Source of the DNA: Halobacteroidaceae bacterium
GTDB lineage: Bacteria; Bacillota; Halanaerobiia; B1SED10-174
NCBI GenBank assembly: GCA_003554585.1
Contig: PWGV01000183.1
Span: 8,574-72,573 of the forward strand
DNA: 64,000 nucleotides
Direction: 5' to 3'
The notes under the pieces are model-generated. The model had not been told where the DNA came from, did not search any database, and worked only from the letters and a program-made list of their open reading frames with translations. Numbering within the stretch: position 1 is the stretch's first letter; every line of letters starts with the position of its first letter. Both the position numbers and the translations under genes were made by a program. Positions 4,058-61,579 of this stretch are shown piece by piece.

Positions 4058-4059
4058 AA

Positions 4060-4092
4060 AAAAGACCTGCTTTTAAAGGCGGGTCTTTTTTC
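4060..4092. terminator. Bidirectional rho-independent terminator
   Basis: Hairpin AGACCTGC-TTTTAAA-GGCGGGTCT flanked by an A-run and a T-run, between convergent genes. Confidence 0.6.
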
Positions 4093-4094
4093 TC

Positions 4095-4739: not shown

Positions 4740-4753
4740 GCTAGGGTACCTCC

Positions 4754-5806: not shown

Positions 5807-6043
5807 TTAACACCAACCCCCTTTGAAATTTGCTTCGATTTTTATTAAACTAACTCCCAGATCCCGAATACGATTAATGCAACCGAAGAAAGCTGCCTGA
5901 TCCTGGATCAGCCCGAAAAGGAGGGAGTTTCCTTCTGGTGTGTGTTGGGCTTTTAGTCCGGCGAACCATTCTGACCAGTCGGGATCTATATGCCCCCTGA
6001 TCCAAATTTTTAGTTTCACCTGATTTTTTGCCAAAGAATTCAT
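5807..6043 (-). CDS. Small conserved hypothetical protein (RGHxDxxWSxWF...DQAAxxGxxNRIRDLG type)
   Basis: GGAGGTG SD before MNSLAK at 6043. Abuts the downstream oxidoreductase gene. The sequence pattern is recognised from memory as a widespread uncharacterised family. Confidence 0.55.
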   Translation of the reverse strand: MNSLAKNQVKLKIWIRGHIDPDWSEWFAGLKAQHTPEGNSLLFGLIQDQAAFFGCINRIRDLGVSLIKIEANFKGGWC

Positions 6044-6144
6044 GTCGCACCTCCTGGAATGTTTCTTGCAGATCCATAATAATATTTTGGGGGCCAAAAG
6101 AGAACTGACGAAAGTTAGGTTAGGGTTAGGGAATGGGTTGGTAA

Positions 6145-6180
6145 ATAAAAAAACCGGGAAGCATCCCGGTTTTCAAAAAA
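6145..6180 (-). terminator. Rho-independent terminator downstream of the MalT-like gene
   Basis: On the minus strand: AACCGGGATGCTTCCCGGTT followed by a U-rich run. Confidence 0.65.
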
Positions 6181-6201
6181 AGGTTATTCAATTATATTTT
6201 T

Positions 6202-8889
6202 TTATTCTTCCCTGATCAGGTTCAATTCCCTTGCCCTGGCAATTGCTTCAGCCCTTCTTTCAACCAGGAGTTTGGTATAGATGTTACTAATGTGCCACTT
6301 AACTGTACCCACGGAAAGGAAAAGCTTATCAGCAATCTTCTGGTTGGATAATCCCCGGGCCAAAAGCTGTAGAATCTCCATTTCCCGTGGGCTCAGCCTG
6401 GTGACTTCCGAGGGAGTTAAAAGTTTCTGCTGGCCGTTGGTCCATTTTTCCCCAAGTCTATGGAGAATCCTGGCTGCAAATCTGGAAACCTTTCTTTTGG
6501 CAGGTATTCTGGAAAGAAGTCTTATAATTTCCTCTCCCTCGTCAAGGAAAGGTTGGATAAAGTTTTCGCTGCTTCCCAGGTTCAAGGCTTCGGTAAGATA
6601 GGAAATTGCTGAATTCTTATTATCTTTTCTACAGGCAAGTTGGGCCTTTAAAAGCAGGATTTCAATCTTAATTCCCCTTGCCTCGATTTGGGAGAGATTA
6701 TTTTCCAGGGTATCCAGAATTCTTTCAGCGGTTTGCAGGTTCCCTTCACTTATTTCCAGACGGGCCAGGACCAGGTGGATTGTTTCCTGCCCAAAGGAAG
6801 GTTTGTTTTCAGCAGAGGGTTTTAACCGGGATAGATAGTCCCGGGCCAGGGAGAAATCCCCTTCTTCGAGATAAATCCGGGCTCTCCAGGTAGAAACCAA
6901 CTGGCCAATGACCGCAGGCAGGCCGTCCTCACGCTGGATTTTTGCCATTTCTCCCAGGAGTTCCTGGGCTTTTGCCAGCTCTCCCGAGGAGAAACAAACC
7001 AGGACCAGGCAATACTGGCACCAGGCCAAAATTTGTTTTTCGGGTTGGCATATTTTTATAGCTTTCTTAATTTTATCTCGGGCCTTCTCCAGTTCATTTT
7101 GATCTTTATAAATTAAACCCTCAAGTGCAAGAAGGGGCCCGGTTCGGGGCATATTTGTGAGGTGGTTTTCTTCAGCATATTTAAGAATTTCGGTGCAAAT
7201 CTGGTGGGCTTCTCCCAGACGGCCCCGGTACCAGTGAATATTGCCGAGTTTCCAGCCCGCGAGTAACGTGGAAAAGTGCTGTCCGCTTTTTTTGGCCAGG
7301 GCAATAGCCCTTTCAAACTCTTCCGCAGCTTTATTCAAATCACCTTCCAGGGCCAGGGCGTCTCCAGCAGCCAGGGCTGCAAAACTATGCCATAGGGTTT
7401 TTTCCGGGGGCAGTTTTTCTTGGACTTCCCTGCTCCGGGTAACAATGGCCCTGGTATCGTTCTGGAAAATGGAGAGATAAGTCCTGATTAGGGCCAGCAT
7501 TCCCTCGAATTCCTTCCGTTCACTTTCATCGGTAATCTGGATCTCAGGGGCTTCTTCCATAAAGGAATCCAGCCCTTTTAAATTACCCCTAATGATTAAA
7601 AACAGGGCTTTATAGGCAAAAAGGCGAGGAAAAATTTTCAATAGATCGGAAGGGATTTTTTCAAGCCACCCGGAAAACCTCCTGTTGCCCTCCTGCTGCC
7701 AAATAAAGTCAGGATCCTCGTTAATTATTTCCAGGGCCCACTCCATGTTATCAAAGGCCAGGGCGTGTTCTACAGCCTGTCCTGGCTCCCCTCTTTCCAG
7801 GAAGTGGCGGGCGGCCCTTTCGTGCAGGGCTGGGAGCAGATCTTCATCCCGAATGGAAAGCTGAAAATTTAAAAGCTCAGCAAAAAGTGGATGGTAGCGG
7901 TATTTGAAAACATCTGGATCGACAGGGGTTAAAAAAAGGTTTTGATTTTCCAGCTTAATTAGGATCTCCCCGCTGTCCCCTCTACCCGTAATAGCCTGGC
8001 AGATGGAAGGATCCAGGGTTTTCAATATCGAGGTCTGTAAAAGGAAATCCTGGATTTCCGGGGGTTGCTGGGATAGGACCTCTTCTGTTAAAAAGTTGAG
8101 GATATGGCGGTGGCTCCCGGTAAAGTTCCGGATGAAAGACCGGAGGTCCTTCTGGTTTTGCATCGAATGGGCAGCCATCTGCAGGCTCGTAACCCAACCC
8201 TCTGTTTTCCGGGTTAAATCACTTAAGTCCTCCTCGGTAAGGTTTTCCAGGCCGAATAAATCCAGGAACTCTTTTATTTCATAAGGAGAAAACCGCAGGC
8301 GGTCACCGCGGATTTCCGTCAGCTGTCCCCGGGCTCGCCAGCGGGCCAGAGGCCAGGGTGGATCAGCCCGAGAGGTAACAAACAGTTGAATATGGGGAGG
8401 CAGGTTCTCAATGAAAAAGGAAAGGTTTTCCTGGATTGTTTTTTCTTCGATAAGATGGTAATCATCCAGGATCAGGAATAAGGGTTCGTCAATTTCAACA
8501 AGTTCGTTTAAAAAGGAGACGAGCAAACTTTGTTCAGGAGAAAATTCAGGGTTGGGGGCCCCGGCCTGAATATTCTCCAGGGCAAAATCACCCAGACCTG
8601 GTTCGACTCTCTGCAGAGCAGAAATAAAATAGGTCCAGAAAAGGCGGGGATCATTATCACTCTCATCCAGGCTGTACCAGGCTGTTCTCCCTTCCCATTT
8701 TGCCGCCCACTGCAGGGCAAGAGTCGTTTTTCCAAACCCGGCTGGAGCCGAAATTAAAATCAGTTTGCGGGGATATCCCCGGGCAGGAGTAGGGCCTTTT
8801 TCAATCTGTTCTAAAAGGCGGGTCCTTTTTACCAGCCCTACCGGTTGAGGTGGTGGAGTTATTTTAACTTTCAGTAACCTTCCAGCCAT
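6202..8889 (-). CDS. MalT-like STAND ATPase / LuxR-family transcriptional regulator
   Basis: 895 aa. Walker A APAGFGKTT and Walker B LFLILDDYH. Long TPR-like helical middle region. C-terminal LuxR HTH (LSPREMEILQLLARGLSNQKIADKLFLSVGTVKWHISNIY). Confidence 0.85.
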   Translation of the reverse strand: MAGRLLKVKITPPPQPVGLVKRTRLLEQIEKGPTPARGYPRKLILISAPAGFGKTTLALQWAAKWEGRTAWYSLDESDNDPRLFWTYFISALQRVEPGLGDFALENIQAGAPNPEFSPEQSLLVSFLNELVEIDEPLFLILDDYHLIEEKTIQENLSFFIENLPPHIQLFVTSRADPPWPLARWRARGQLTEIRGDRLRFSPYEIKEFLDLFGLENLTEEDLSDLTRKTEGWVTSLQMAAHSMQNQKDLRSFIRNFTGSHRHILNFLTEEVLSQQPPEIQDFLLQTSILKTLDPSICQAITGRGDSGEILIKLENQNLFLTPVDPDVFKYRYHPLFAELLNFQLSIRDEDLLPALHERAARHFLERGEPGQAVEHALAFDNMEWALEIINEDPDFIWQQEGNRRFSGWLEKIPSDLLKIFPRLFAYKALFLIIRGNLKGLDSFMEEAPEIQITDESERKEFEGMLALIRTYLSIFQNDTRAIVTRSREVQEKLPPEKTLWHSFAALAAGDALALEGDLNKAAEEFERAIALAKKSGQHFSTLLAGWKLGNIHWYRGRLGEAHQICTEILKYAEENHLTNMPRTGPLLALEGLIYKDQNELEKARDKIKKAIKICQPEKQILAWCQYCLVLVCFSSGELAKAQELLGEMAKIQREDGLPAVIGQLVSTWRARIYLEEGDFSLARDYLSRLKPSAENKPSFGQETIHLVLARLEISEGNLQTAERILDTLENNLSQIEARGIKIEILLLKAQLACRKDNKNSAISYLTEALNLGSSENFIQPFLDEGEEIIRLLSRIPAKRKVSRFAARILHRLGEKWTNGQQKLLTPSEVTRLSPREMEILQLLARGLSNQKIADKLFLSVGTVKWHISNIYTKLLVERRAEAIARARELNLIREE

Positions 8890-8915
8890 TTTGCTTGCCC
8901 CCTAACGGGTAATAT

Positions 8916-10064
8916 TTAGTCGTTGTTTCTATAATCCAGGGTTTTAAGGAAATTTTCCAGGGGTATTTCCCCGGAGATGTTTTCCTTGAGTTCCTGGTAT
9001 TTTCCTCTTGCTCCGGGCTGGTTGTAACCCTTAATGGCGCGGAGCATAATGTTTTTCGGTGTTTCGAGTGGAGAAACATATTCCACCACAGAAACCCTGT
9101 AGTTGTAGGCTTCCAGGGCTGCAGCTCTAAGGCCATCGGTGAAGATATCAGCCAGGCGGTTATGAAAAATATTATGCTTGCTGATTGGTTTCCACTGGTT
9201 AAAATCAATTTTTTGGTGCAGAGCGGCCTGGCAGCAGGGAACGGCAATAATGTACTTGCTTTCCAGGTGTAAACCGAGGGCCAGGGCTTCGTCTGTGGCC
9301 GTATCACAGGCATGCAAACTTAATACCATGTCGATATCCGAAGAAGAATGGAAATCCATTATTTTCCCCTGCCGGAATTCCATGTTGTGATAACCGAGCT
9401 GTTTTTGAATTTTCCGGGAGGAAGCAATAACATCGGCGTTATCATCGATCCCAATCACTTTACAGGGCATCCGTTTTTTTTCTGTTAACCAGTAATTAAG
9501 GACGAAGGAAAGATAGGACTTTCCGCAGCCGCAGTCGAGAATGGTGATTTTTCCCTTGTCGGGTTGTTCCTCAATTATTTCATCGATAAGTTCAATAAAC
9601 CGGTCAACCTGGTAGAACTTGCGGCGTTTATCGGCCTTGATTTGACCCTCGGGGGACATTATTCCCACTGCCTTTAGTAGTTCTTCGGCTTCACCCGCCC
9701 GGATGAAGTCCTGGCGGGTGCCGTATTCCGGGGTTTTTTGGTGCTGGGCAGGTTCATCCTGGGTATTAATTTCCATTTTCACGTCTCCGGGGAGTATCTT
9801 TAACTGGACAACACTTCCCCTTTCAATTATTTTTACCGTTGCCTTTTCAATACCGGCCAGTTGCTGTTCAAGATATTCCCGGAGCTCTTCGCGGCTGATC
9901 CGGTCCTTTTCTGCAAGTAAATAGCGAGGATTTTCCGGGTCAACCTGGAGAGTGCTTTTTTCCCTGGCAGAGGTGATTTCTATCCGCTTTAAGTTATCCG
10001 TATCTTTCAGCCGGTAAAAGGTCATCTGCAGTAGGTTTCTCAGCTTCTGGTTCCTTTTTTTCAT
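8916..10064 (-). CDS. Class I SAM-dependent methyltransferase with N-terminal extension
   Basis: Motif I ILDCGCGKSYLS. HACDTATD motif. 382 aa. Confidence 0.65.
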   Translation of the reverse strand: MKKRNQKLRNLLQMTFYRLKDTDNLKRIEITSAREKSTLQVDPENPRYLLAEKDRISREELREYLEQQLAGIEKATVKIIERGSVVQLKILPGDVKMEINTQDEPAQHQKTPEYGTRQDFIRAGEAEELLKAVGIMSPEGQIKADKRRKFYQVDRFIELIDEIIEEQPDKGKITILDCGCGKSYLSFVLNYWLTEKKRMPCKVIGIDDNADVIASSRKIQKQLGYHNMEFRQGKIMDFHSSSDIDMVLSLHACDTATDEALALGLHLESKYIIAVPCCQAALHQKIDFNQWKPISKHNIFHNRLADIFTDGLRAAALEAYNYRVSVVEYVSPLETPKNIMLRAIKGYNQPGARGKYQELKENISGEIPLENFLKTLDYRNND

Positions 10065-10278
10065 ATTGTTCTCTCCTTGAACTCGGTTTAAGATTTTTTT
10101 TGCTCCTAGGTTTTTATTAGATTTTAGCAGAGGGAAGTCCTTTTTTAAAGGGAAAAAACCTTGAAAGATTAGGTTTGAAAGGGGTAAGGAAAGCAGAAGT
10201 ACGGTGAAGGAAAGGGTTTTTTTGGAAACCGTCGAAGGGAAAATAGAGCAAACAAAATTCTAGGAGGGGGAAAACACC

Positions 10279-12051
10279 TTGCTTAAAAACCTGGAAAAAA
10301 CCTGGGACCTGGAAGATATTTTCCCCGGGGGCAGCGAATCAGAAGAATTAAAAGAATATATAGCAGAGCTGGAAAAAGAAATTAAAGAATTGAACGAAGG
10401 AGTAAGAGGAGAAATTGAGAACTGGCCAGCTTTAATAGACCGGGTGCAGAAGGCAGGGGGGAGGCTCCGGGAGGCAAGTTCTTTTATCGGCTGCCTTAAC
10501 GCCCAAAATACTAAGGACGAGCAGGCCAAGCTTTTAGGGCGGAAAATGCAGCAGTTGGGCGCTGCCCTGCAGTCAGTTTTTACAACCCTGGATAAAAAAA
10601 TGCTGCAAATCCCCGAAGCAGTATGGGAAAAGCTTCTCGAGGAAATGAGTGAACTTGCTTATAACCTGGAAGAAAGGCGGCAGCGGGCAGCAGAATTAAT
10701 GTCCGAAGAACAAGAAAAACTGGCTACGGACCTTTCTGTAGATGGGTACCACGGCTGGAGTGACCTTTATAATGTTATTACCGGTCGAATGGCTATTCCG
10801 TTTACTGTTAAGGGGAAGAAAAAAAAGCTGTCTATTGGCCAGGCCGCCAATATTTTTGCCGATCCGGATCCAAAGGTCCGGAAGGAAATGGGGGAAAAGT
10901 GGGAAGAAGCTTGGTCGGAGGAAGCCGAACTCTGTGCCAATGCTTTAAACCACCTGGGAGGGTTCCGCCTGAATCTCTACCGGCACCGGGGCTGGGATTC
11001 GGTATTAAAAGAACCCCTGGAAATTAACCGGATGGCTCCCCAGACCCTTGACGTGCTGTGGGAAGTAATTGAGCAAAATAAAGATGTGTTTGTTAGTTTC
11101 CTGAACCGCAAGGCCGAGATGCTGGGCCTGGAAAAACTTCGCTGGTGTGATCTGCGGGCACCAGTGGCCGAGACCTCGAAGGAATATTCTTTTGAGGAAG
11201 GGGCCAATTTTATTGTTAACCAGTTTGAGCAGGTCAGTCCCCGCATGGCTGAATTTGTCCGGCAGGCTTTTGCAAAAAGGTGGGTTGAAGCTGAAGACCG
11301 TGGTGGGAAAAGGCAGGGAGCTTTTTGCACCAGCTTCCCCATGAGCGAACAAACCAGGGTTTTTATGACCTATTCCGGGACCGCTGGCAACGTTTCCACC
11401 CTGGCCCATGAACTGGGTCATGCTTTCCATCAGCATGCGATGAAAGGCTTACCCCTACTTTCCCAGCGTTACGCCATGAATGTAGCCGAAACAGCTTCTA
11501 CTTTTGCGGAAATGGTAGCAGCTGATGCTGCTCTGCGCAATGCCAAAGATGAGCAAGAAAAAATTGCTCTGCTGGGAGATAAAGTCGGCAAGAGTATCTC
11601 TTTTTTCATGGATATCCACTGCCGGTTCCTGTTTGAAAAGGACTTTTACGCTGCCCGGAAGAAAGGGCCAGTTGGTACGGATCAATTAAATGAGATAATG
11701 GAAAACGCTCAGAAAAAAGCTTTCAGGGAGAGTCTTGCCGATTATCACCCTCACTTCTGGGCTTCCAAGCTGCATTTCTATATTACTGCAGTTCCATTCT
11801 ACAATTTCCCCTATACCTTCGGTTATCTTTTCAGTGCGGGAGTTTACGCCATGGCCAGTCAGGAAGGGGAAAACTTTGAACAGAAATATATAGACCTGCT
11901 CAGGGATACGGGTAGAATGCAGGTAGAAGACCTCGCCCGCAAGCACCTGGGTGTAGACCTGACTCAGCCAGATTTCTGGCAGAAAGCTGTGAGCCTGGCC
12001 GCTGAAGATGCAGAGGAATTTTTAAGGTTAACCGAACAAAAGAAAAGGTAG
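10279..12051 (+). CDS. pepF: M3B oligoendopeptidase F
   Basis: 590 aa. Zinc motif HELGHAFH. AGGAGGGGG SD before the TTG start. Confidence 0.85.
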   Translation: MLKNLEKTWDLEDIFPGGSESEELKEYIAELEKEIKELNEGVRGEIENWPALIDRVQKAGGRLREASSFIGCLNAQNTKDEQAKLLGRKMQQLGAALQSVFTTLDKKMLQIPEAVWEKLLEEMSELAYNLEERRQRAAELMSEEQEKLATDLSVDGYHGWSDLYNVITGRMAIPFTVKGKKKKLSIGQAANIFADPDPKVRKEMGEKWEEAWSEEAELCANALNHLGGFRLNLYRHRGWDSVLKEPLEINRMAPQTLDVLWEVIEQNKDVFVSFLNRKAEMLGLEKLRWCDLRAPVAETSKEYSFEEGANFIVNQFEQVSPRMAEFVRQAFAKRWVEAEDRGGKRQGAFCTSFPMSEQTRVFMTYSGTAGNVSTLAHELGHAFHQHAMKGLPLLSQRYAMNVAETASTFAEMVAADAALRNAKDEQEKIALLGDKVGKSISFFMDIHCRFLFEKDFYAARKKGPVGTDQLNEIMENAQKKAFRESLADYHPHFWASKLHFYITAVPFYNFPYTFGYLFSAGVYAMASQEGENFEQKYIDLLRDTGRMQVEDLARKHLGVDLTQPDFWQKAVSLAAEDAEEFLRLTEQKKR

Positions 12052-12079
12052 TTCATTGCTGGAAAGGGCTGGAGTAAGC

Positions 12080-12674
12080 TATGGACCTGGCAAAGAAAAC
12101 GTTTTTTTGTTCGTGGAGGGGGGCAAGGCTCCCTGCCTTGCCCTCTATTATGCCCTGAAAGGGAAAGGAGATCCCCGGTTTCTTTTAACTATGATGGTTG
12201 GGGAAGGCAAGCTGGTTTCCCAGGCCTACTTCCTGGGAAGACTACGAAAGAAGTTTTTTGGATATGGGCCGGGAGTTTAAACGGCGGGGAGTAGAAGCAG
12301 GAGTTTTTGGAGACATTGACCAGGAAGATCACAGGGCGTGGATGGGGAAGGTTTCCAAAAAAGCTGGGCTCGAAGCCATTCATCCCCTCTGGAATATGGG
12401 GTGGGAAGAAGTTATTGAGAAATTTATTTCCCTGGGTTTTAAAGCGGTAGTAATTGCTGTTGATAGTAATAAACTCGGGCCGGAATATCTGGGCAGGGAA
12501 TTAAACAGCCTGCTGCTCGTTGAGTTAAAAAAGAAAAATGTAGACCCGGCTGGAGAGAATGGAGAATATCATACCTTTGTAAAGGGTGGCCCGATTTTCC
12601 AGGAGGAAATCCATTGCGAACCGGGAGAAGTTATCGGAAGGGACGGGTTTTATTTCCAGGATTTAATAATTTGA
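12080..12674 (+). pseudogene. Dph6-related (MJ0570-type) PP-loop ATP pyrophosphatase, frameshifted
   Basis: MDLAKKTFFCSWRGG, then a frame change in a G6 run near 12116, then GKAPCLALYY (the PP-loop SGGKDS is degenerate). A second shift or short deletion occurs near 12200. The C-terminal part is intact (GVFGDIDQEDHRAW, ENGEYHTFV). Confidence 0.6.
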
Positions 12675-18518: not shown

Positions 18519-19724
18519 TTATCGGGTTGTTTCAATCCGGTCCCTTCCTTTGTTTTTTGCCTTGTATAAACCCTTGTCGGCCGCTTTAATAACCTCGCCG
18601 GGAGCTGGGAAATTCTCGTTATCAGCAAGCCCAAAACTCGCAGTTACTTTAATTTTGTTACCCAAACGCCGGGAACTGTTTTTCCCCGGTTTTTTGCGCC
18701 GTCGGTTTTTACCCCTGACGTAAAAAGGCCTCTGGATCATTTTTTCCCGAAGATCTTTTAGGTAGGGCAGGGCTTCATCTTTGTTCTTCCCGGGGAAAAT
18801 TATTGCAAATTCTTCTCCTCCAAAACGGTAGGGCTTACCTGGCCGGGAGTGCTTTTGCAAAATAGCCCCAACAAATTTCAACACCTGGTCTCCAGTAGCA
18901 TGGCCGTAACGGTCATTGACCCGCTTGAAATGATCAATATCGACCATGGCTATACTGAAGGGACTGGAAAGTTTTAAAATGTCCTGTTGTAATGATCTGC
19001 GGGAAGGCAGTCTGGTTAACTCATCGAGATAGGCTAAAATATAAAGATCTATCACCAATCGGAAAATAACAAAGGCAATTAAGGCCAGGTAAAATACAAT
19101 CCAGACCTGGTTTGAAGCGGGATAAAGGAACGGGGAGAAGGAGGCACCCCAGATTGCGCCCAGGGTAACCGGCGTAGGATCCCTTCGAATATAACCCACA
19201 GCACAAAAAAAGAAAAAACCAAGTCCCATTATTGCCAGTAACAGGCTCGCAGGAGAAATGTTACCAGGAGCATCAAAAAACTCGAAATAAATTTTATCCA
19301 GCCAGTCCTGGTTGGGGAAAATAAGCAGAGGAAAGGCAACAAGCTGGATGAGTATAATAAATATCCTGGTTTTCCCCGGGGAAGAGAGAATGCCTTTTTC
19401 CCTGGATAAAGCCAGGTAAAAAAGGTTGCCCCAGAAAATTAAAAGCAAAACAAAAAGGAGCGGGGAGTTTTGAAAATCAGGAGGAAAACCTCCGGAAAAA
19501 TTTATGCCAAAAAGGGAGAGAGCAAACAGGAGGCCCAGGAAAAACCTGGATTTATCAAAAACAACTGTCAGGATTAAAATAACTAAAAAAAGAACAATAA
19601 TTAAAAGCGAGGTATTAAAAACTGGAAAAGATGGTAAAAGCCGGGTAATTAAAAGATAATGAGCTGCAGCAATAAAAAAGAGAGGAGGGATTATGGTTTT
19701 TAAAAATTCTTTTTTGTTAGCCAT
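18519..19724 (-). CDS. Membrane-bound diguanylate cyclase (GGDEF)
   Basis: About 230-aa polytopic N-terminus. Active-site RFGGEEFAIIF. No RxxD five residues upstream. Confidence 0.85.
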   Translation of the reverse strand: MANKKEFLKTIIPPLFFIAAAHYLLITRLLPSFPVFNTSLLIIVLFLVILILTVVFDKSRFFLGLLFALSLFGINFSGGFPPDFQNSPLLFVLLLIFWGNLFYLALSREKGILSSPGKTRIFIILIQLVAFPLLIFPNQDWLDKIYFEFFDAPGNISPASLLLAIMGLGFFFFCAVGYIRRDPTPVTLGAIWGASFSPFLYPASNQVWIVFYLALIAFVIFRLVIDLYILAYLDELTRLPSRRSLQQDILKLSSPFSIAMVDIDHFKRVNDRYGHATGDQVLKFVGAILQKHSRPGKPYRFGGEEFAIIFPGKNKDEALPYLKDLREKMIQRPFYVRGKNRRRKKPGKNSSRRLGNKIKVTASFGLADNENFPAPGEVIKAADKGLYKAKNKGRDRIETTR

Positions 19725-28791: not shown

Positions 28792-28993
28792 ATGTTCAAA
28801 AATTGCGATTTTTCGCATCAATCTAAGAAAACCTGTAGGAAAGAAGGAAAAACTGATTAAAATTCTTAAGTATTGAAGGTTTTTGTGGAAAAATGCAGAA
28901 GATTAAATTTGCTTAAAAAATAAAAAAATTAAATTATTATGCATAAGATGTTGTTTCGCGAAAGGAAAACTTTTCTGAAAGCGGTGGTAGGAA

Positions 28994-30176
28994 GTGGATG
29001 CTATTGATAAAAATACTCTTCAGGTTTTCAGCCTGGGCCGCTTCGAAGTCAGGAGAGGCGGACAGCCTATCTCCCAGGAAGAACAACGTTTGAATAAAAG
29101 ATGGCGACTTTTCCAAATATTAATTACTTATAAAGGGCAGGCCTTATCATCGGAGCAAATGTATAAATATTTTTCCCTGGAAGAGAGTGTTAACCCCTCT
29201 GAGGCTTTGAAGAGTCTTGTTTTTTATCTTCGACGCTCTCTGGAAAAGGACAAAGGTAAAATAAAAAATGGGGAACAGTATATTATTTGTTCCCAAGGGC
29301 GTTATTTATTCAATGAAAAATCACACTACTGGCTTGATGCTGAAGTATTTGAAAACCTGTGTAAAAAGGGTAGGCAGGTTGCGGAGGAATCAGCTGCAGT
29401 AGCCATTGATATGCATCTTGAAGCCCTTTCACTTTACCGGGAAATTACCTTAGGGAAGTTCCACATGCTTACTGGGCTATTTCTGCCCGCAATCATTACC
29501 GGGAACTCTATCTACGGGCTATGCTGGAGGCGAATGAACTATTTAGAAAGGAAGCAAGGTATGAGAAGCCTGGGAACTTTGCGAAGCAGGACTGCGTATT
29601 GTTCCCCTGGAAGAAAAACTCCATACTAGTTCCCTGAAAGCCTTGATTGATGGGGGGAAAGCTGGGCTGGCTTTAGTCCAGTATCAAGAAGCAGCTTCTT
29701 TATTCAGGGAAAATGGGTTGGATGTTCCTGCAGCTTTAAAGGGCCTGGGAGAATCTCTGAAAAAAGAAAGCAAAAAACAAGAAAAACCAGAAGAAATTTT
29801 GCGAAAGTTGCAGGCGAGAAGTCGGGAAGAAGGGGCTTTTGAAAGCGGTCTGGAGAGTTTTTCATTGATCTATGAACTGGAAAAAAGTAGAAGTGAACGG
29901 AGGCAAAAACCCGGCTACCTTGTTTACTTGAATTTAAATGGGGAATGCCCGGATTCTGAAGTTTCGCGGGTTGGCAAAAGCTTAAAAGAATCTTTAAAGA
30001 AAAATTTGCGCAAAGGAGATGTTTTTTGTAATTGGAGCCCAAGGAATTATCTGGCTATTCTTATAAATGTTCCTTCGGGGGAGATAGGTAAAATTATGGA
30101 GAGAATTAAAAATAATGTAACCCGGGAATGTGCTGGTACTGAAATGGAATTTGAGCACAGGCGGAAGGAAATATAA
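28994..30176 (+). pseudogene. SARP-like (wHTH+BTAD) regulator with degenerate GGDEF C-terminal domain, two frameshifts (paralog copy 1)
   Basis: Paralog of 60159-61370 and 63858-end. The reading goes frame 2 to frame 1 (G-run near 29438) to frame 0 (near 29567), which restores ..SLYRGNYLREVPHAYW..RYEKAWELCEAGL... The C-terminus has RKGD-VFCNW-SPRNY in place of RxxD-x5-GGDEF. Confidence 0.75.
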
Positions 30177-30424
30177 GGGAGACCTGCGAGGGGCTCCTTT
30201 TTATTTTGGTTAGATATTCTTTTACCAGCACTGCAAAAACAGGGAGAAAAAAGTTTGTGTTAGGGAGCCCCCCCTAAAGAAGGTTCTTTTTCTTATAACC
30301 TTAATCTAACCTGATTTTAACCCTTGAATAACTGACAGGGTTAAAAAGGGGTGTTATACTTCAAGTAAAGAGGGTGTATTAGCATAGGCGGATAGTTGCT
30401 TCTGGGGAATAGGGGGACTTAAAA

Positions 30425-30709
30425 GTGGCAGAGGAACGCTTGGTTGTTGAAAAAAAACTAGTTTTTTCAATAAAAATTTATTCCCGGAATGGGCTTGATA
30501 TTCAGGGAGAAATTAAGAATATAGGATCCGGTGCCCAGGAGAAATTTAATGATTTTTTTGAACTTGCTTATATTTTAGAAAAATATCTTGAACGAATTAA
30601 CCCCGATTTTTCCATTGAAAATGCGAGATCCTGGGACAATGATGAAGGTTCAGTTGATAAACAGGGGGAGCGCTTGTTTAAATTTATGCGGAGTTTAAAG
30701 CCCTTTTAA
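30425..30709 (+). CDS. Small conserved cytoplasmic protein, divergent member of the WQGEI/FRSxLEM family
   Basis: 94 aa. GTG after AGGGGGA. Shares the pattern F.I.I....QGEI...F..F.EL..IL...LE...RSWD with 30711 and 61580. Confidence 0.6.
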   Translation: MAEERLVVEKKLVFSIKIYSRNGLDIQGEIKNIGSGAQEKFNDFFELAYILEKYLERINPDFSIENARSWDNDEGSVDKQGERLFKFMRSLKPF

Positions 30710-30710
30710 A

Positions 30711-31001
30711 ATGAATGAGGGAGTGAAAACGTTGTCCCCAAAGACAGGTGATAAGAAAAAGAAAATTGGTTCCACAGATTTCCTGATTCGCGTCCAGTTC
30801 CGGCAGCATTCAACCTGGCAGGGAGAAATTCAGTGGCTGGGTGTTAAACACGAGCGGAGACGTTTTTTCCGGAGTTTTTTGGAAATGGTAATGCTAATCC
30901 AGGAAGCCTTAGAAAAAGAAGGTAAAATAGAGCCGAGTATTACTTTGCAAAACTGGGATGAAATCCAGGAGAAACTTTTAAAAACAAGACCCGCGGAGTA
31001 A
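30711..31001 (+). CDS. Small conserved cytoplasmic protein (WQGEIQW...FRSFLEMVMLIQEALEK)
   Basis: 96 aa. An alternative TTG start at 30732 follows GAGGGAGTG. Close paralog of 61580-61843. No signal peptide. Confidence 0.7.
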   Translation: MNEGVKTLSPKTGDKKKKIGSTDFLIRVQFRQHSTWQGEIQWLGVKHERRRFFRSFLEMVMLIQEALEKEGKIEPSITLQNWDEIQEKLLKTRPAE

Positions 31002-31015
31002 CCTAAAAAGGTAGG

Positions 31016-32382
31016 GTGAAAATCATGGAAAAGAAAAACACCTTGCTGATTTTAATAACAATTTTCTTGTTAGCAACGTCGGCAGGAGCGGCTGACCGAC
31101 CAGCAGTTGATTTCGGCACGTATACCGCCCCACAAGAAATTAGTAAGACGGTGGCGGTTCTTGTGCCCCTGGCCGATGAGGGGTGGAGTACCTGGAAGTG
31201 TGGCTGGAAAGTTTACCCGCAACAGAAGATAGGTTGCTCACCCTGGAAGGACAGCGGTTGAAGTTAGAAACCCGTGGATGGATATACTGGGTGGATATAG
31301 ACCCGGTCGCTATTCCCACGGAACATCAAATGCTGACCGATGATAATACAACCGCCCTGCCGTTAATGGTAACCTATACAATTAAACCGCAGGATAGGCC
31401 GGGGCAATATAGAACAGTTCTGGTTATGCGGGAGATGGGCAGTGAAGGTCTGATTAAAGAAAGATCTCTTCCCATTCGTTTGCAAATTAATCCCTGGGTG
31501 AAAATTGAAACAGTTTCTGGAGACGTCCCTGTAGGGAGCTGGGGAGAAGAACCGGGGATTTTAATTAACCGAATTCCCGGTGAAGTTAGAGTGGGTTCCA
31601 ACTCCAACTGGCAACTTTTCCTCGAATGTTTCCCGATAGAAGAATTAAAATCGGGAGATTTGGAACTGGTCCTGATGACCGGGGAGGATAGTGGATTTGA
31701 GGGTCTTACCCAGCTTTCAGTTCGGCTCAAAGAGGAGCAAATTCTCCTCGGTGGGGGGAGGGCCGACATATGTTATGATTGGAATGTTAATGAAAAAAAT
31801 GAACTAGTTGAATATGAAATGGGAACTTTAAAAGAAACCCTGGATGGGTTAATCCGTTTCAATCCCCGGCGATCTTCTCTGGAACCTTGGGAATCGCAGA
31901 TAGTAAGAATTACAATAAATTTCCCCGAAGGTGAGGGGGAGCCTTTTGAGCGAAGGGGGATTATTTTTTTCGAGCACGAGGAAGAGGCCGAAATGGAGGA
32001 ATGGTTAGGGGCTGTTATTAAAACAATGATTGGCGCTATCATTTATGCAAGGCCCAGCGAATTCAGTTTTAATTTCCTGCTGATAGAAGGTTTAGTATTA
32101 AGCGGTCCCAGTGGCCAACAGGTGGCAGCTCTTCTATTGGGAAATCCTTCATTTGTTCATGCTCGCTTTACTATTGATTACAGGGTAGTAACTGCGGAAG
32201 GGGAAATTTTCGAGGAAGGAGAGGTAACGGAAAAGGTTTTTTTACCGGAAACAGCAAGAACAATTTATATTCCTTTTCAAAAACCATATCCGCCCGGAGA
32301 ATACAGATTAATTCTTGAATTGAAATTTACCGACATAGATTTTAGGTTGAATGAAGTTGTTTCTTTTCGAGTTGAAGATTAG
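31016..32382 (+). pseudogene. Secreted hypothetical protein (~455 aa) with one apparent frameshift
   Basis: A signal peptide ORF (31016-31261; probable ATG at 31025) overlaps a 399-aa ORF (31183-32382) in another frame. The junction is a G4 run at about 31179-31182. I recognise no family. Confidence 0.55.
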
Positions 32383-32503
32383 GAGAGGGGCTTGGGCATC
32401 CAGAAAAATCATACTCTTCACAAATTAATAATCATCCTCATAGTTTTGTTTTTTTGCATGGCTCTTTTATAAAAGCTGCCAATGAGGAAACCAGTATTGT
32501 ACT

Positions 32504-33989
32504 TGTTGAGGGTCAAGACATAGGTAACACTTTAGGGCCAGGACATAGGTTACACTTATAACCAATAATTAGGAAAATTTCAGTTTTTAACAACCATTTT
32601 AGGTCAGGACATAGGTAACAGTTTAATGTTTAAATAGGGGCAACACATAGGTTACAATTTGCCCAGTGTCTAAATCATCCTTGAGGTGATTTAGATGCCA
32701 TATCAAGAACAACAGCGTCAAGAAGCCATGCAGCGTTATCTTTCCGGTGAGAGCATTTCCAGTATCTGCAGGGATTTTAAGCGGAGCCGAAAATGGTTTT
32801 ACAAGTGGCAAAAGCGGTATGAATCAGGGAACCCGTATTGGTATAAGGTTGAAAGCCGGGAACCTCGTGAAAAGCCCCGGAAAATTGCTCCTGAAGTTGA
32901 AGAAACTATTATTCAGGTTCGTCGCAAACTAAAACAGGATAAGTATGCCCGGATTGGCCCCCAAATGATTGACTGGGAATTGAGAAGGTTAGGTTATGAT
33001 CCTCCTCCTTGCCTTTCAACTATCAAAAGGGTTATTCGTCGAAATAAGCTTGTTACAAGGCTTGAGCGGTATGAGAAGAAGGGGACTACATACCCCCAGA
33101 TTCCACCTCTTTTCCCAAATACAATACATCAAATAGATTTTTGGGGTCCTCGTTATATTAAAGGAGATGGAAGGTTCCACAGTCTTAATGTCATGGATAT
33201 TTATACTCGCAGGGTTAGTACTTACCCTGCCAGGCGCAAAAGAACCCAAGAAGCTTTAGAAGGCATCAATACTGTCTGGAAATTGATGGGAGCCCCGGAG
33301 TTTATGCAATTTGACAATACCCTGGCATTTAGGGGTAGTAATAGATACCCCCGTTCTTTTGGGCCTGTTATTAAATGGTGCCTGAGACATAGAATACAAC
33401 CGGTCTTTATACCCTTTGGTGAGCCCTGGAGAAATAGTCATTTAGAAAAGTTTCACCACACCCTTGAAAAGCAGTTTTTTCGGCGGATCAATTTTAATAG
33501 TTTTACTAATTTGGTCCAGGAAATAGAGGGGTTCAAAACCTATCATAATCAGCATTACCGTTACAGTCCACTTAACGGATATACCCTTGAAGAAGTATAT
33601 GAGCGTGATCGAATTTGTCCAGATGCTTCCCTGGGAACAGATTTTTCCATGGATGAGGATATTCCTTTAGAAGACGGCTACATTCACCTTATACGGTTTA
33701 TCCGCAGTGATCGTAAACTTAATATTTTCGGCGAAACTTTCCCGGTACCTAAAGAATTAGAATATGAGTATGTGGTAGCAACAATATGCACAGATAACCA
33801 CTTTATCAGGGTCCATGATAACCAGTGGAAATCCCTTTTCACCATACCGAATTCCCATCGACAGTTTGTAACCTATGTCCTGGCCCTAAAAGGGTTTTAG
33901 GAAAATCCACGGCCCCTAGGGGCCGTGTAACCCATGTGGTGATCCCCTAAAGCCATTAGGAAGTGTAACCTATTTGATGGACTTCAACA
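32504..33989 (+). mobile_element. IS481-family insertion sequence
   Basis: Imperfect terminal IRs, TGTTGAGGGTCAAGACATAGGTAACAC / GTGTAACCTATTTGATGGACTTCAACA. Flanking 6-bp near-repeat TGTACT / TGTAAT. Subterminal repeats ACATAGGT(A/T)ACA, 4 left and 3 right. Single rve transposase gene. Confidence 0.75.
32695..33900 (+). CDS. IS481-family DDE (rve) transposase
   Basis: 401 aa. N-terminal HTH. Catalytic residues in IHQIDFWGP, MQFDNTLAF and WRNSHLEKFHHTLEK. Confidence 0.85.
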   Translation: MPYQEQQRQEAMQRYLSGESISSICRDFKRSRKWFYKWQKRYESGNPYWYKVESREPREKPRKIAPEVEETIIQVRRKLKQDKYARIGPQMIDWELRRLGYDPPPCLSTIKRVIRRNKLVTRLERYEKKGTTYPQIPPLFPNTIHQIDFWGPRYIKGDGRFHSLNVMDIYTRRVSTYPARRKRTQEALEGINTVWKLMGAPEFMQFDNTLAFRGSNRYPRSFGPVIKWCLRHRIQPVFIPFGEPWRNSHLEKFHHTLEKQFFRRINFNSFTNLVQEIEGFKTYHNQHYRYSPLNGYTLEEVYERDRICPDASLGTDFSMDEDIPLEDGYIHLIRFIRSDRKLNIFGETFPVPKELEYEYVVATICTDNHFIRVHDNQWKSLFTIPNSHRQFVTYVLALKGF

Positions 33990-36276
33990 TGTAATTCTTA
34001 AAATCAAGACCGAAATTCAAGACCTTTGGTGGGATGATTTTTTGAGATTCTTGATAAGCAGGACTACATCCTTTTGCCTGTTGCTGAAATTTCTAGGTAT
34101 CTGGACCTGCAACCCCGTTATTTTCGCGAAGAAAATCCCCTTTATATTGAACATGTTCCCAGTAGCAGGAGTGCCAGGATTGACTTAAAATTGGGTATTT
34201 ATGAAGGGTACCCTGAACTATCAGCCCAACCTCCAGTTCAGCACGAGGGGGACTTTTTTGTTTCCTCTTCTTTAATCGAAAGCCTTACCGGGGGCAAATT
34301 AGCTGGAACCCAAGGCGACAGGAGGTAACAATTTTCCCGAGTGGAGAATTAGTTCCGTCCGGGCCTTTACTTCGATTTCTGGAGAGGCCAGCCCGGGAGA
34401 TACAGTTACTCTTTATGTTAATGAACGCCGGGTTGACGAAGTATATGTTTTCAGAGGAGAACAGTCCTATAAATTCGAGGAAGTTTCTTTGATTTCCAAC
34501 CGCATTAACACTATCAGGATTGAAATCAGGAGGTTTGACGGGGAAATTGTGGAGATAGAAAAGCAAATACCAGGAAGCCCCAATATCCTGGAAGAAGGAG
34601 TTTGGGAATACCTTGTTTTCCTTGGAAGGTATGGAGGAAAAGGTGGAAGAGATTATAAAGGTGATATTGTTGGACAGGAAATGAAATTTGCAATTACCGA
34701 TCGGGTTACGGGAACCTGGGAATTGCTGGGTTAAGGGATTTTGATTCGAGCGGTGAGCCCAAGGATTTTGTTGAGGTTGGTAATGTACTAGGACTTGCTT
34801 TATGGCCCTTTGATGCTCCCCTGCTTTTTTCAGTTGATTGGCTTACTGGTGGAATATTCGGGGAACTGGCCCATGGATTCAGGTCAGCAATGCTTATTAC
34901 ACTGGAAAAAGGCTATTTTGAACTGGGTTTCTCTTATGTCCCTCCCCCAGTAACGGTGGGAGTTAGAGAAGATTCCGGGGTTAATGTTTGGACAACCCTG
35001 GATTATGAATTATCTCCTGATTATGGTTTATCCTTAACTGGTGAACTATATCGACCCCTTTGGGATTTGGAATATAAAACCGGCCAGAAGGTAGAGACAA
35101 CGGTCAGTTATCGAGACGGCAGAAGATTATCCCTGGCAGTTACGGGAGCTCTGGGGCATCGTTTTTATATTGATAAAGATACAAGCGGAAAGGATCGTTA
35201 CAACGATATTATCGACCTGGATTTAATTTTTGAACACAGGTCCTTTACACCAGGAGGTTCGACCCGGAGCAAAATAGGTTTTCTGGGGGGATACCTTTAT
35301 CCCGGCGACCATCACCCGTATTTATTATCCAATGTTATTTTCGACCTGGGTTTCACCAGGAACCTTACTGATGATTTTCTGGTAGGAGGCAATGCCAGTA
35401 CTTCTGCTTTTTGGTTGGGAACGAAATTTGAGGAACTGAAAGTAAGAGCTGATGCCAGAGCGAGAATTACGGCAAGCGATAATTTAATAATTACGGGGAC
35501 GGGGTTACTCGAGGGAGAGGGAGAGCAGGAAAATGATGATCTGGTGGAAGCGGGAAAAATAGAACTGGGGATTTCAGCTACCTATTATTTTTCCCGTCAG
35601 TTTTATACCACGGGGGAGTTAAAATGTACCCGTTTACCCCAAACCGAGGATGCTTTTTACACCAGCAAGGGTACAGTTTTTTATAATAACCCGGATTTGA
35701 ATCTTAGATTGTCCCTGCGAGGGGAATACCTGACTCCAACAAATTTCAGGGAAGTGCCTCAAATAAAAGCAGGGATAACCGCAACAAAAACTTTTTCATC
35801 CGGCTTGGGTATTTCTCTGAATGCTGCTCGAACTTACCGTTCCGCAACAGCCGTAGCACCTGAATATACTGTTGGATTTTCAATAAACCAGACAATTGGC
35901 TTTGCCGGCGGGAATATTTTCGGTCAGAGATACCCTTCAGGCACAGACCACGTTTCTTTTATCGCAGGTGTTGTTTACCTTGATGAAAATGGGAATGGCA
36001 TTCGGGATAAAGGAGAGCCATTACTTTCCGATATACCCATTCTTCTTGATCGAAGAAGGATCAGGACGGATGAGGAGGGAGGGTTCTTTTTTGAAAGGAT
36101 CAGACCTGGATTATATGAAGTGGGTATTGATCCTGCCCAGCTATCTGGAGAATACCAGATAATTACTCCGAAGAAGGTTGTTCAGATCCGAGAAAATGAG
36201 AATATTTTCCTTGAGTTCGGTGTAACTAAGTCGGAGTAAAAAGGAAAAAGTACTAACAAAAAATAGAGGATGAAAT

Positions 36277-36305
36277 AAAAACACCGGATATTTCCGGTGT
36301 TTTTA
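36277..36305 (+). terminator. Rho-independent terminator
   Basis: AAAAACACCGGA-TATT-TCCGGTGTTTTT. Confidence 0.8.
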
Positions 36306-36430
36306 TTGGGAAAAAAGTTTTTTCAACCTTTCGAGGAAATTGAGCAGAAAATAATTTGCAGGGTTTTTAATTTTTCTGGCAAAATAAAAGATAGAGTCCA
36401 GGCAGGTTTTGGTTTGAGGGGGTGTGGTTT

Positions 36431-37333
36431 TTGATTATAAGCGCGAGCCGGAGGACAGATATTCCGGCCTTTTATTCTTCCTGGTTCATGGATAAAATTA
36501 ATCGCTCTTACTGTGTTGTAAGTAATCCTTTCAATCCCCGGCAGGTTAAGCGGGTAAGCTTAAAAAAGGAAGATGTAGACCTGTTTGTCTTTTGGACAAA
36601 AAATCCCGATCCCTTGATTCCTCACCTGGAAAAACTGGATAGAATAGGCTTTAATTACTATTTCCTGTTCACTTTGAATCCCTACTCCGAAGAGATAGAA
36701 CCGGGGCTGGAGAGTGTTGAAAAAAGAATAGAGGTTTTCCAGGAGTTATCCAGGCTTATCGGGCCGGGAAAAGTAATCTGGCGTTATGACCCGATAATAT
36801 TAACTCGAGGGATGGATCTGTTTTACCACAGGGAGCAGTTTGATTTTTTATCATCTGCCTTAAAAGGAGCAACCAGGCGGGTTATAATTAGTTTTTATTC
36901 TTCCTACCGTTCCGGAGATAAGCGCCTGAAAAAGGCAGGGATGGATATTTTTTTTCCGGAAAACTGGGAGAAGAAGCGGAAGGAGTTTCTCCATGATCTG
37001 GCCAAAATTGCCCGGCAAAAGGGAATGGTTGTCCAGGGATGTGCACAAAAAGATCTCGAAGGAACTGGAATTGGGCGGGGTAAGTGCATCGATAACGATT
37101 TTATCGAGGAAACTTTTGGGCTAAGTTTCCAGGCTAAAAAAGATACTGGGCAAAGGCCTGGGTGTGGTTGTATTCCCAGCCAGGATATAGGTTCCTATGA
37201 TACCTGTTTGCATGGCTGTCTGTACTGTTACGGCTGGGGTAGCAAAAAAAGGGTTGAAGGTAATTTTTCACATTATAATTATGAATTTCCCTCCCTGGCT
37301 GGAACAGTAAATGAAAATAAGGAATTCAAGTAA
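36431..37333 (+). CDS. DUF1848 domain-containing protein
   Basis: N-terminus (M)IISASRRTDIPAFY is typical of DUF1848. C-terminal Cys cluster CGCIPSQDIGSYDTCLHGCLYCYG. TTG at 36431 follows GAGGGGGG (the ORF opens at GTG 36422). Confidence 0.7.
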   Translation: MIISASRRTDIPAFYSSWFMDKINRSYCVVSNPFNPRQVKRVSLKKEDVDLFVFWTKNPDPLIPHLEKLDRIGFNYYFLFTLNPYSEEIEPGLESVEKRIEVFQELSRLIGPGKVIWRYDPIILTRGMDLFYHREQFDFLSSALKGATRRVIISFYSSYRSGDKRLKKAGMDIFFPENWEKKRKEFLHDLAKIARQKGMVVQGCAQKDLEGTGIGRGKCIDNDFIEETFGLSFQAKKDTGQRPGCGCIPSQDIGSYDTCLHGCLYCYGWGSKKRVEGNFSHYNYEFPSLAGTVNENKEFK

Positions 37334-56649: not shown

Positions 56650-57858
56650 TTACCGATAGAGGCCTTCTTCATCGTACCTGGCCACTTGGGCTACATCCTT
56701 GTCACCTCGGCCTGAGAGGTTTACTATTATTGTTTTATCAGGTGGTAGGGTTTTTGCAAGATGCAGGGCATAGGCTACAGCATGGGCGCTTTCCAGGGCA
56801 GGAATAATTCCTTCTTCCCGGCTCAAAAGCCGGAAGGTTTCCAGTGCTTCGCGATCGGTTACGCTTTCGTAACTGATTCTTCTAGTATCTCTTAAGTAGG
56901 AGTGTTCCGGGCCTACTCCCGGGTAATCTAAACCGGGGGCAATGGAATGAACGGGAAGGGGTTCGCCTTTTTCATCCTGGAGGGTGTAGCATTTAAAACC
57001 ATGAATTATACCTGGAGAACCTCTGCTGATAGAAGCAGCGTGCTGATTTGTATCCAGGCCTCCACCGGCGGGTTCAACTCCAATTATCGCTACCTTCTCG
57101 TCCTTGAGGAAAGGATGGAATAGTCCGATGGCGTTGCTGCCTCCTCCCACACAGGCTACAAGGTAATCGGGGAGTTTCCCGGTAGCTTCCATAACTTGCT
57201 CCCGGGCTTCTCTTCCTATTATACTCTGGAAATCCCTGACCATCGTGGGATAGGGGTGAGGCCCTACTGCTGAACCCAGCAGATAGAAACTGTTTTCAAA
57301 GTCCCCGGCATACGTATCCAAAGCCTTATCAACGGCATCTTTTAGAGTTCTGGTTCCAGTTTCTACAGAGACCACTTCCGCGCCCAATAACTCCATTCGG
57401 AAAACGTTCATCTGCTGGCGAATTACATCTTCAGCCCCCATGAATATTGTGCATTCAAGGTCAAAAAAGCTTGCTACAGTTGCCGTGGCTACTCCATGCT
57501 GACCGGCCCCTGTTTCAGCTATCAATCTTTTTTTGCCCAGATCCCGGGCCAGGAGAGCCTGCCCCATGGCGTTATTAATTTTGTGTGAGCCGGTGTGGTT
57601 TAAATCTTCTCGTTTGAGGAAAATTTTTGCTCCTCCAGCATACTCCGATAGTCTTTCCGCGAAATAAAGGGGATTGGGGCGGCCCACAAAATGTTTTAAA
57701 TGAAAGGCCAGTTCCTCCTGGAAAGTTGGTTGCTCCCGCAATCTCTGGAAGGCATCGGTTAATTCCTGCAGGGGTTTTTCCAGGGGAGGGGGGACAAACC
57801 TGCCTCCGTAATCTCCAAAAAAACCTTCTCTTGTCAGTTCTTCCTTTTTAGTTGCCAT
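56650..57858 (-). CDS. trpB: Tryptophan synthase beta chain (TrpB1-type), stand-alone
   Basis: 402 aa. [13 protein letters not shown] lysine [17 protein letters not shown]. No trpA adjacent. Confidence 0.9.
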
Positions 57859-61370: not shown

Positions 61371-61380
61371 TTTAAAATTA

Positions 61381-61540: not shown

Positions 61541-61579
61541 GAAGAAAACCGGTAAAAGCCGGGGCTGCGGGGGATTTAA

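Follow-up and report, generated by a model that had tools for sequence, protein, structure and literature searches.

The stretch of DNA analysed here (the window) comprises 64,000 nucleotides of contig PWGV01000183.1 from a Halobacteroidaceae bacterium, and its positions 28994–36239 are probably a recently inactivated copy of an eight-gene chaperone–usher-like cluster. The intact cluster, known from contigs of relatives that carry homologues, has the order Reg-s1-s2-A-B-C-D-E, in which Reg is a regulator, s1 and s2 are small proteins, A and B are secreted proteins, C is PapD-like and D and E are usher-like. We read the order as two secreted proteins followed by a PapD-like protein and one or two usher-like barrels because the fold and sequence similarities of C, D and E so assign them. 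The original prediction, made from the letters of the window, had seen a largely inactivated envelope or surface-structure locus adjoining a SARP-like regulator, and our analysis supports it. Our working hypothesis for the mechanism of the intact cluster, which we hold to be likely, is that A and B, having Sec signal peptides, would be exported to the periplasm, captured there by the soluble two-domain C and handed on to D as well as, in this clade, to the paralogue E. Both would be large beta-barrels of the outer membrane that carry a plug inside, following strand 6 as it does in FimD and PapC, and through them the subunits would cross to the cell surface, there to form a surface fibre or adhesin, polymerisation presumably proceeding by donor-strand exchange. 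Expression is presumably under the control of Reg together with s1 and s2, both small and cytoplasmic. In the window the system is almost certainly dead: deletions of 1.5 and 3.7 kb have fused A to C and D to E and taken out B, an IS481-like element lies within D, and Reg, A, D and E bear the remaining damage, which consists of seven 1-nt deletions and the loss of the start codon of D. By chaperone–usher-like we mean that the cluster would work like such a pathway, not that it is a demonstrated member of the classical family.

The same arrangement is present in at least five Halobacteroidaceae relatives from soda-lake sediment metagenomes. The full order is seen in loci L006, L008 and L009 and in L012 and L013; it recurs in L010, in which the s1 gene is not called, and L016 has Reg to D without E. 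In the window as in the relatives, the locus has genes for threonine synthase and an S8 peptidase on its upstream side and genes for DUF1848, APH and Opp proteins on its downstream side. Typical product sizes in the relatives are about 394 (Reg), 94 (s1), 87 (s2), 289 (A), 300 (B), 1010 (D) and 923 (E) amino acids (aa), with 270 aa for C; lengths in the intact syntenic loci include 289 aa for A, 304 for B, 270 for C, 1010 for D and 925 for E. Reg has 394 aa in L006, which is the closest intact locus (84–91% nucleotide identity to the window by blastn). In the window all open reading frames (ORFs) of the locus lie on the + strand in the order originally given, the two small genes are intact as claimed, and three-frame translations reveal repeated changes of reading frame, which bear out the frameshifts originally reported for regulator, 'secreted' and 'barrel' genes alike. 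The intact orthologous loci that the prediction had proposed to seek are co-located with the regulator and the small genes, and its suggestion that joint decay marks one functional unit fits the gene order conserved in the relatives.

Alignment to L006 defines the damage (Table 1). The first deletion (1.5 kb) has taken the whole of B together with the adjoining ends of A (3') and C (5'), and joins residues 1 to about 250 of A in frame to residues about 67–270 of C; the C remnant, fused to A, has lost its signal peptide and first strands. The second (3.7 kb) has left only the 5' part of D and has cut the initial 864 nt from E, and joins residues 1–150 of D out of frame to residues 289–925 of E. 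The '~455-aa secreted protein' of the original prediction is thus an A–C deletion fusion from which B has been lost, and its '~785-aa barrel protein' a D–E deletion fusion, neither being a natural protein; a frameshift suspected at about 34330–34380 is in fact the out-of-frame D/E junction. The last gene was also considered as one 786-aa protein with five frameshifts and an insertion sequence (IS), and this was rejected, since the homologues have 921–1010 aa and the N-terminus matches D and the rest E. Only 11 relatives of the repaired 786-aa product were found, each covering about 80% of the query, and they fall into two size classes, of 921–925 aa (59–89% identical) and 1007–1029 aa (30–35% identical); the first ~150 residues match the 1010-aa class, and from FPEWRISSVRAFTSISGEA onward the product matches the 923-aa class. 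The N-terminus of the first D fragment likewise matches the 1010-aa paralogue P0007, and the E remnant aligns with L006 E by tblastn over aa 288–421 and 415–925, in two frames and at 87–88% identity. An exhaustive search of representatives was dominated by SdrD_B repeat proteins, with some 35–40 of the best 150 matches being full-length relatives.

Relative to L006, every frame-breaking indel in the remnant coding sequence is a 1-nt deletion (n = 7), and the start codon of D has been lost by a change of ATG to ATC at 32398–32400. No homology was found at the deletion junctions 31768/31773 and 34332/34333, A, B and C have no BLAST similarity to one another, and the identity between D and E is only about 33%, from which we conclude that the deletions were illegitimate and not a collapse of paralogues; homologous recombination between paralogous A, B and C genes was rejected as their cause on the same grounds. 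Of the predicted composition, a surface-structure locus beside a regulator has stood; the chaperone C, the lost gene B and the presence of two usher paralogues had been missed.

Table 1. Features and lesions of the locus in the window, and its blastn alignment to the intact locus L006
Feature	Window position	Strand	L006 position or gene	Basis or detail
Regulator ORF pair	28994-29629 and 29643-30176	+		ORF list
Reg pseudogene, SARP-like: winged helix-turn-helix, BTAD, degenerate GGDEF-like tail, two 1-nt deletions	28994..30176	+	Reg	three frames by tblastn
1-nt deletion	about 29444		Reg	short G/A run
1-nt deletion	about 29565		Reg	A2->A1
s1, intact 94-aa ORF without signal peptide	30425..30709	+	s1	85% identical over 94 aa to L006 s1
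s2, intact 96-aa ORF, homology from 30732	30711..31001	+	s2	83% identical to L006 s2
Signal-peptide ORF	31016-31261	+		ORF list
399-aa ORF overlapping it	31183-32382	+		ORF list
A remnant, about the first 250 residues of a secreted protein of 289 aa, a candidate subunit of the fibre	31025..31768	+	A	tblastn aa 1-52 and 54-245, two frames; blastn block ends 31768
1-nt deletion	about 31178		A	G-run region
C remnant, PapD-like protein from about residue 67 to its end at 270	31773..32382	+	C	tblastn aa 69-270, 84% identity
D 5' fragment 1, signal-peptide part of usher-like protein (1010 aa)	32392..32502	+	D	alignment to L006 and L011
1-nt deletion	about 32449-32455		D	T8->T7
IS481-like insertion sequence, 1487 bp	32503..33989	+		TG...CA ends, imperfect terminal inverted repeats
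Intact 401-aa transposase	32695-33900	+		rve and HTH domains
D 5' fragment 2, residues about 38-150, copper-amine-oxidase-N1-like N-terminal domain	33996..34332	+	D	blastn, weak Cu_amine_oxidN1 match
1-nt deletion	about 34042		D	T7->T6
1-nt deletion	about 34294		D	G-run region
E 3' remnant, from about residue 289 to the end (925), with plug, most of barrel and SdrD_B-like C-terminal domain	34333..36239	+	E	blastn, tblastn
1-nt deletion	about 34723		E	A3->A2
ORFs of 3' part, several fragments, the last of 449 aa	34890-36239 (last)	+		ORF list
Aligned: Reg, s1, s2, most of A	28794-31768		439-3410	blastn
Absent from window: A 3' end, entire B, initial ~200 nt of C			3411-4953	blastn
Aligned: rest of C and D start	31773-32507		4954-5692	blastn
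Inserted element without L006 counterpart	about 32503-33989			blastn
Aligned: D residues about 36-150	33991-34332		5684-6027	blastn, 91% identity
Absent from window: rest of D, first 864 nt of E			6028-9699	blastn
Aligned: rest of E and DUF1848	34333-37267		9700-12641	blastn

All five envelope proteins (A–E) start, by inspection, with signal-peptide-like sequences. The third of them, C (4751–5563 in L006), is predicted to fold as a PapD-like two-domain chaperone: its AlphaFold model, based on an alignment of 25 family members (predicted local distance difference test, pLDDT, 87.8), consists of a signal helix and two beta-sandwich domains without a C-terminal helix or membrane anchor, and with the Foldseek results it describes the soluble periplasmic protein of two Ig domains expected of a PapD fold. 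In Foldseek against PDB, behind the WxLIP structures considered below, the model matches CfaA (TMt 0.60–0.64), FimC, CsuC, Caf1M, PapD, SfaE and EcpB, with E values from 3e-10 to 1e-7, and also YadV. By sequence, the family profile matches the EcpB chaperone in PDB (E 0.0033), and one C homologue carries the label 'P pilus assembly chaperone PapD' given by the Joint Genome Institute. An arginine of the first strand (R37, in PSRFIF) is at least 90% conserved in the family and a strand motif G..IY..P (G155/Y159/P162) is also conserved; by inspection we liken R37 to Arg8 of PapD and the motif to the G1 strand, an equivalent of Lys112 not having been identified.

The predicted model of E (P0001; pLDDT 69 overall and about 75–90 across the barrel) has an N-terminal alpha/beta domain, six long strands (residues 191–289), a six-strand sandwich (299–368) and long strands up to residue 813, so that the sandwich is placed between strands 6 and 7, as a plug in a barrel, in a model whose template modelling scores (TM-scores) to ushers are 0.30–0.41. 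FimD and PapC structures take every one of ranks 1–18 in Foldseek (E 1.3e-19 to 3e-12), with LptD (6e-10) and TonB-dependent receptors behind them. The sandwich contains the motif ISGEA.PGD.V.LYVN...F..V.L...N.I.IEI...DG. from which the original prediction, in hedged terms, had thought of usher N-terminal and plug domains; the plug is upheld by the E model with its FimD and PapC matches and by a local match of D to the NCBIfam PefC/AfrB usher at positions 261–394 of 796, the plug region (E 2.7e-8; 32.3 bits vs a cut-off of 752), and the usher N-terminal domain is not, that region showing a weak resemblance to Cu_amine_oxidN1. At the other end, the C-terminal domains of D and E are beta-sandwiches of the SdrD_B and CarboxypepD_reg types by Pfam; the repaired last gene itself matches SdrD_B with E 1.9e-5, below the gathering score, and Cu_amine_oxidN1 weakly.

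In these respects the cluster resembles the chaperone–usher pili of Proteobacteria (Fim and Pap, the 'alternate' CFA/I and ECP, and the 'archaic' Csu), with which it shares the order of secreted subunit candidates, chaperone of two Ig domains and outer-membrane barrel, a plug after barrel strand 6 and probable beta-sandwich domains past the barrel, and its closest structures, FimD and PapC for E and CfaA, FimC, CsuC, Caf1M and EcpB among those for C. Like many fimbrial operons, it is pseudogenised in the window copy and has paralogous loci, several per genome. Unlike such pili, it has ushers ending in SdrD_B or CarboxypepD_reg domains, two tandem usher paralogues in this clade, A and B proteins of about 290–300 aa that are unrelated by sequence to known pilins, a diderm Firmicute host and a SARP/BTAD regulator with a degenerate GGDEF domain.

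A number of results weigh against a chaperone–usher-like mechanism. All components fall below the curated thresholds of the chaperone–usher families. Protein C has no PapD-family match in Pfam even at E <= 1, and its first Foldseek matches are Enterococcus faecium WxLIP (9i1y, 9i25; E 1.8e-12), which is not a pilus chaperone. Only 10 sequences went into the D/E alignment behind the model of E, in which the C-terminal domain is effectively unmodelled (pLDDT <50); the TM-scores of this model to ushers are low, and DSSP points to about 30 long barrel strands rather than 24. L006 D reaches the Pfam Usher family (PF00577) with E 0.023 and 14 bits (vs 27.1), E has no match to it, the NCBIfam usher model is matched by only 2 of the 33 D/E members at E <= 0.01, and profile searches with D and E against PDB sequences returned no usher and nothing useful beyond SdrD_B repeats. 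With 925–1030 aa, possibly more than 24 strands and an N-terminus resembling Cu_amine_oxidN1, D and E differ from known ushers, and two ushers in tandem are atypical. A and B have no sequence match in Pfam, NCBIfam or PDB and no detected similarity to pilins, and at about 290–300 aa they exceed the usual pilin size. The literature searched on ushers together with Halanaerobiales, diderm Firmicutes or Negativicutes yielded only a survey of secretion systems and a paper on a Veillonella adhesin in which E. coli fimbriae are mentioned; it contained no link between ushers and Halanaerobiales, no description of the cassette and no experiment.

These points leave a serious rival, which we consider rather unlikely, namely that usher-like barrels and a PapD- or WxLIP-like C make up an outer-membrane secretion or display system without a polymeric pilus, the window copy being decayed all the same. 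A and B might, for example, be monomeric surface or cell-wall-associated proteins and C a WxLIP-like binding partner, in a system possibly related to the WxL/WxLIP loci of Enterococcus and Lactobacillus (WxLIP being DUF916/DUF3324). Besides the WxLIP structures that head the Foldseek matches of C, WxLIP_PGBD alone among the Pfam families gives a hint for C (E 0.0082; 16.6 bits vs 27.3), A and B lack pilin similarity, the end domains of D and E (Cu_amine_oxidN1-like, SdrD_B, CarboxypepD_reg) are unlike those of classical ushers, and WxL loci too are Firmicutes clusters with secreted surface proteins. However, C is without the C-terminal membrane anchor of WxLIP and is a soluble two-domain protein like PapD, no WxL domain is matched in A or B even at E <= 1 in Pfam, and outer-membrane barrels would be useless to monoderm loci; with the sub-threshold WxLIP_PGBD score, this sets the cluster apart from WxL loci. 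The tight order of subunit candidates, chaperone and usher, together with the plug-in-barrel fold, is moreover typical of chaperone–usher operons. The C-terminus of the B family is conserved as G-x-Y-x-G-x-V-x-F-R-A-Y-T-[IL], which is reminiscent of the C-terminal strands of pilins and which we treat as a lead only; a Pfam scan of all B-family members gave no match, and the profiles of A and B are weakly related at their C-termini (hhalign probability 26%).

On the chaperone–usher-like reading, the cassette appears to be an undescribed and highly divergent system. To our knowledge, most catalogued chaperone–usher systems are proteobacterial, and Cyanobacteria and Deinococcus-Thermus account for some. 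In a scan that took one genome for each species, 35 loci proved to encode C relatives; by tblastn, B-C-D, usually with A, are adjacent in nearly all 35, and those long enough show the A-B-C-D core. Reg lies upstream in a subset of these loci, and E occurs only in the closest clade. The hosts are recorded as Halobacteroidaceae, Halanaerobiales, Halanaerobium, Orenia, Hydrogenispora and unclassified Bacillota metagenome-assembled genomes (MAGs). Among four of the loci (L029, L036, L040 and L025) are those of the cultured strains Orenia metallireducens MSL40, Halanaerobium saccharolyticum WC1 and Halanaerobium kushneri ATCC 700103, which have intact C and D with a B-like gene upstream and in which A was not detected by tblastn, and that of a Hydrogenispora MAG with the full A-B-C-D set. 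The Halanaerobiales are described as diderm Firmicutes (PMC4793230; PMC7549365), so that carriers of this order have the outer membrane that a chaperone–usher pathway needs in its host; the window, at 80–90% identity to these MAGs, probably comes from such a host. The survey of secretion systems that covered diderm Firmicutes left the chaperone–usher pathway out (PMC4793230). The existence of cultured carriers (H. saccharolyticum, H. kushneri and O. metallireducens) makes the idea testable.

The window copy itself is a dead operon of fimbrial type, a common fate and of little interest alone; what it has revealed is an unannotated conserved cassette, the cores of A–E having no covering Pfam family. 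If the mechanism is confirmed, an envelope machine would be added to the inventory on which the debate about the origin of the Firmicute outer membrane draws, and very distant usher and chaperone sequences would become available for finding what the mechanism requires. It is tempting to speculate further on the first rank of WxLIP among the matches of the C model, which hints at a link between the chaperones of diderm Firmicutes and the WxL loci of monoderms. The A-B-C-D genes could represent a deeply divergent chaperone–usher lineage native to diderm Firmicutes (Halanaerobiales, Limnochordia-like), with a chaperone nearer to WxLIP than to the proteobacterial ones; we think this improbable. 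If true, WxL loci could be remains of chaperone–usher systems after loss of the outer membrane, and so a molecular trace of the diderm-to-monoderm transition, and the chaperone–usher pathway could have originated outside Proteobacteria. The WxLIP paper that we found mentions neither chaperones nor ushers.

That the locus has decayed in the organism is, judged from the assembled sequence, almost certain. Sequencing or assembly artefacts (under-called homopolymers where a stretch beside a repeat was poorly polished, and collapsed paralogues) in a functional locus are a highly improbable explanation. Each of the seven frameshifts is a 1-nt deletion, several fall in runs (T8->T7, T7->T6 and G-runs), and they cluster within about 2.7 kb either side of the IS, where assemblies are weakest. 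Against this, a bias towards deletion is the normal pattern in the decay of bacterial pseudogenes, and seven frameshifts in ~5.8 kb of remnant coding sequence compare with none in ~14.5 kb of flanking genes (at 25.4–26.6 kb and 36.4–49.6 kb), which align end to end with their orthologues in a single frame; were frameshifts spread uniformly over the sequence tested, the probability that all seven fell in the locus would be 1.6e-4. The transposase ORF of the IS is intact, and the deletions join non-homologous sequences, which makes a collapse implausible. Homopolymer miscalls could not have given rise to the IS and its target duplication, to the two deletions, which lack homology at their flanks, or to the substitution in the D start codon, and all of these argue against an artefact. 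In addition, an SBP_bac_5 gene (Opp-type solute-binding protein) at about 150–1700 (+) of the window has become a pseudogene, interrupted by several in-frame stops and a change of frame, which independently shows that this genome carries real decayed genes. The idea that the chimeric frames are functional novel fusion genes of a simplified, remodelled system is scarcely credible: the A–C fusion is in frame, in a 399-aa ORF that is probably represented in the database by P0014 (394 aa, matching 75% of C at 84% identity), but its A part is frameshifted upstream and its C part is without signal peptide and first beta-strands, D and E are joined out of frame, the IS interrupts D, which also lacks its start codon and has three frameshifts, and E is frameshifted too. 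Phase variation at the homopolymers was dismissed, since neither the deletions nor the IS nor the loss of the start codon can be reversed. Two overlapping ORF pairs elsewhere in the window, at 4095/4754 and 52097/52602, were considered as frameshifted genes and found to be separate genes.

The inactivation seems to be recent. Between the window and the relatives the ratio of nonsynonymous to synonymous substitution rates (dN/dS) is 0.11–0.19 for Reg and E, similar to that between intact relatives, and window-specific nonsynonymous and synonymous codon changes number 15:20, compared with 11:38 in L010 (Fisher p = 0.058), which suggests from the sequences that selection has recently been relaxed. 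Some single MAGs have two paralogous C-D loci on different contigs (L013/L014, L012/L015 and L011/L017), so loss of one copy, as in the window, may be tolerated. The DUF1848 gene just downstream (36422–37333, +) differs from that of L006 with a dN of 0.25 and a saturated dS, against a dN of 0.04–0.08 in the neighbouring genes of the locus, and this divergence suggests differing histories on the two sides of the locus boundary.

The transposase insertion claimed originally was confirmed, with the SdrD_B-like C-terminal domain lying downstream of it in the last gene. The element has a target duplication of 6 bp with one mismatch, TGTACT (32497–32502) and TGTAAT (33990–33995), and is present in a single copy within the window; two ORFs of 401/402 aa considered as further copies (18519–19724 and 56650–57858) encode a GGDEF protein and a PALP enzyme. 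It is like IS481 in its single DDE (rve) transposase with an N-terminal helix-turn-helix, its TG...CA ends and the length of its target duplication, and unlike it in that the best NCBIfam family of the transposase, transpos_IS481, is matched with 136.8 bits, under the equivalog cut-off of 224. The ends also carry sub-terminal GACATAGGT(A/T)ACA repeats, four on the left (32501–32659) and three on the right (33867–33987). Multiple sub-terminal direct repeats are not known to be typical of IS481; by analogy, these look like multiple transposase-binding sites and resemble ends of the Tn7/Mu type more than those of a simple IS.

The regulator was correctly recognized as SARP-like with a degenerate GGDEF tail. 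Repaired Reg matches BTAD with 60.2 bits and Trans_reg_C with 21.8 bits in Pfam; BTAD scores are 60–73 bits against a cut-off of 22.1, and those of Trans_reg_C, in the N-terminal position expected of the winged helix-turn-helix, are 21.8–24.1 bits, just below 26.2. L006 Reg (394 aa) shows a weak partial match to GGDEF (PF00990; E 0.0021; 18.3 bits vs 23.8; profile positions 60–109), and the position of the motif reads CNWSPRNY in place of GG[DE]EF. Reg is thus like SARP-family regulators in having BTAD above the Pfam cut-off preceded by a winged helix-turn-helix match, and unlike them in its extra C-terminal GGDEF-like domain without the motif, in its two small partner proteins and in adjoining envelope genes and not antibiotic biosynthesis genes. 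From its adjacency we infer that it controls the locus. Neither s1 nor s2 has a family match in Pfam or NCBIfam; the dN/dS of s1 is about 0.2. A second SARP-like regulator with an s2-type ORF occurs at 60069–61843 (+) of the window; the regulator (433 aa, winged helix-turn-helix and BTAD) is 32% identical to Reg, the s2 paralogue beside it (87-aa ORF at 61580–61843) is 43% identical to s2 over 61619–61816, and no A-B-C-D genes adjoin them. The presence of an s2 paralogue beside a second such regulator suggests that Reg and s2 may be a recurring regulatory module. Elsewhere in the window, a Diphthami_syn_2 ORF at 12198–12674 (+) matches profile positions 74–198 of 219 and may be truncated at its 5' end.

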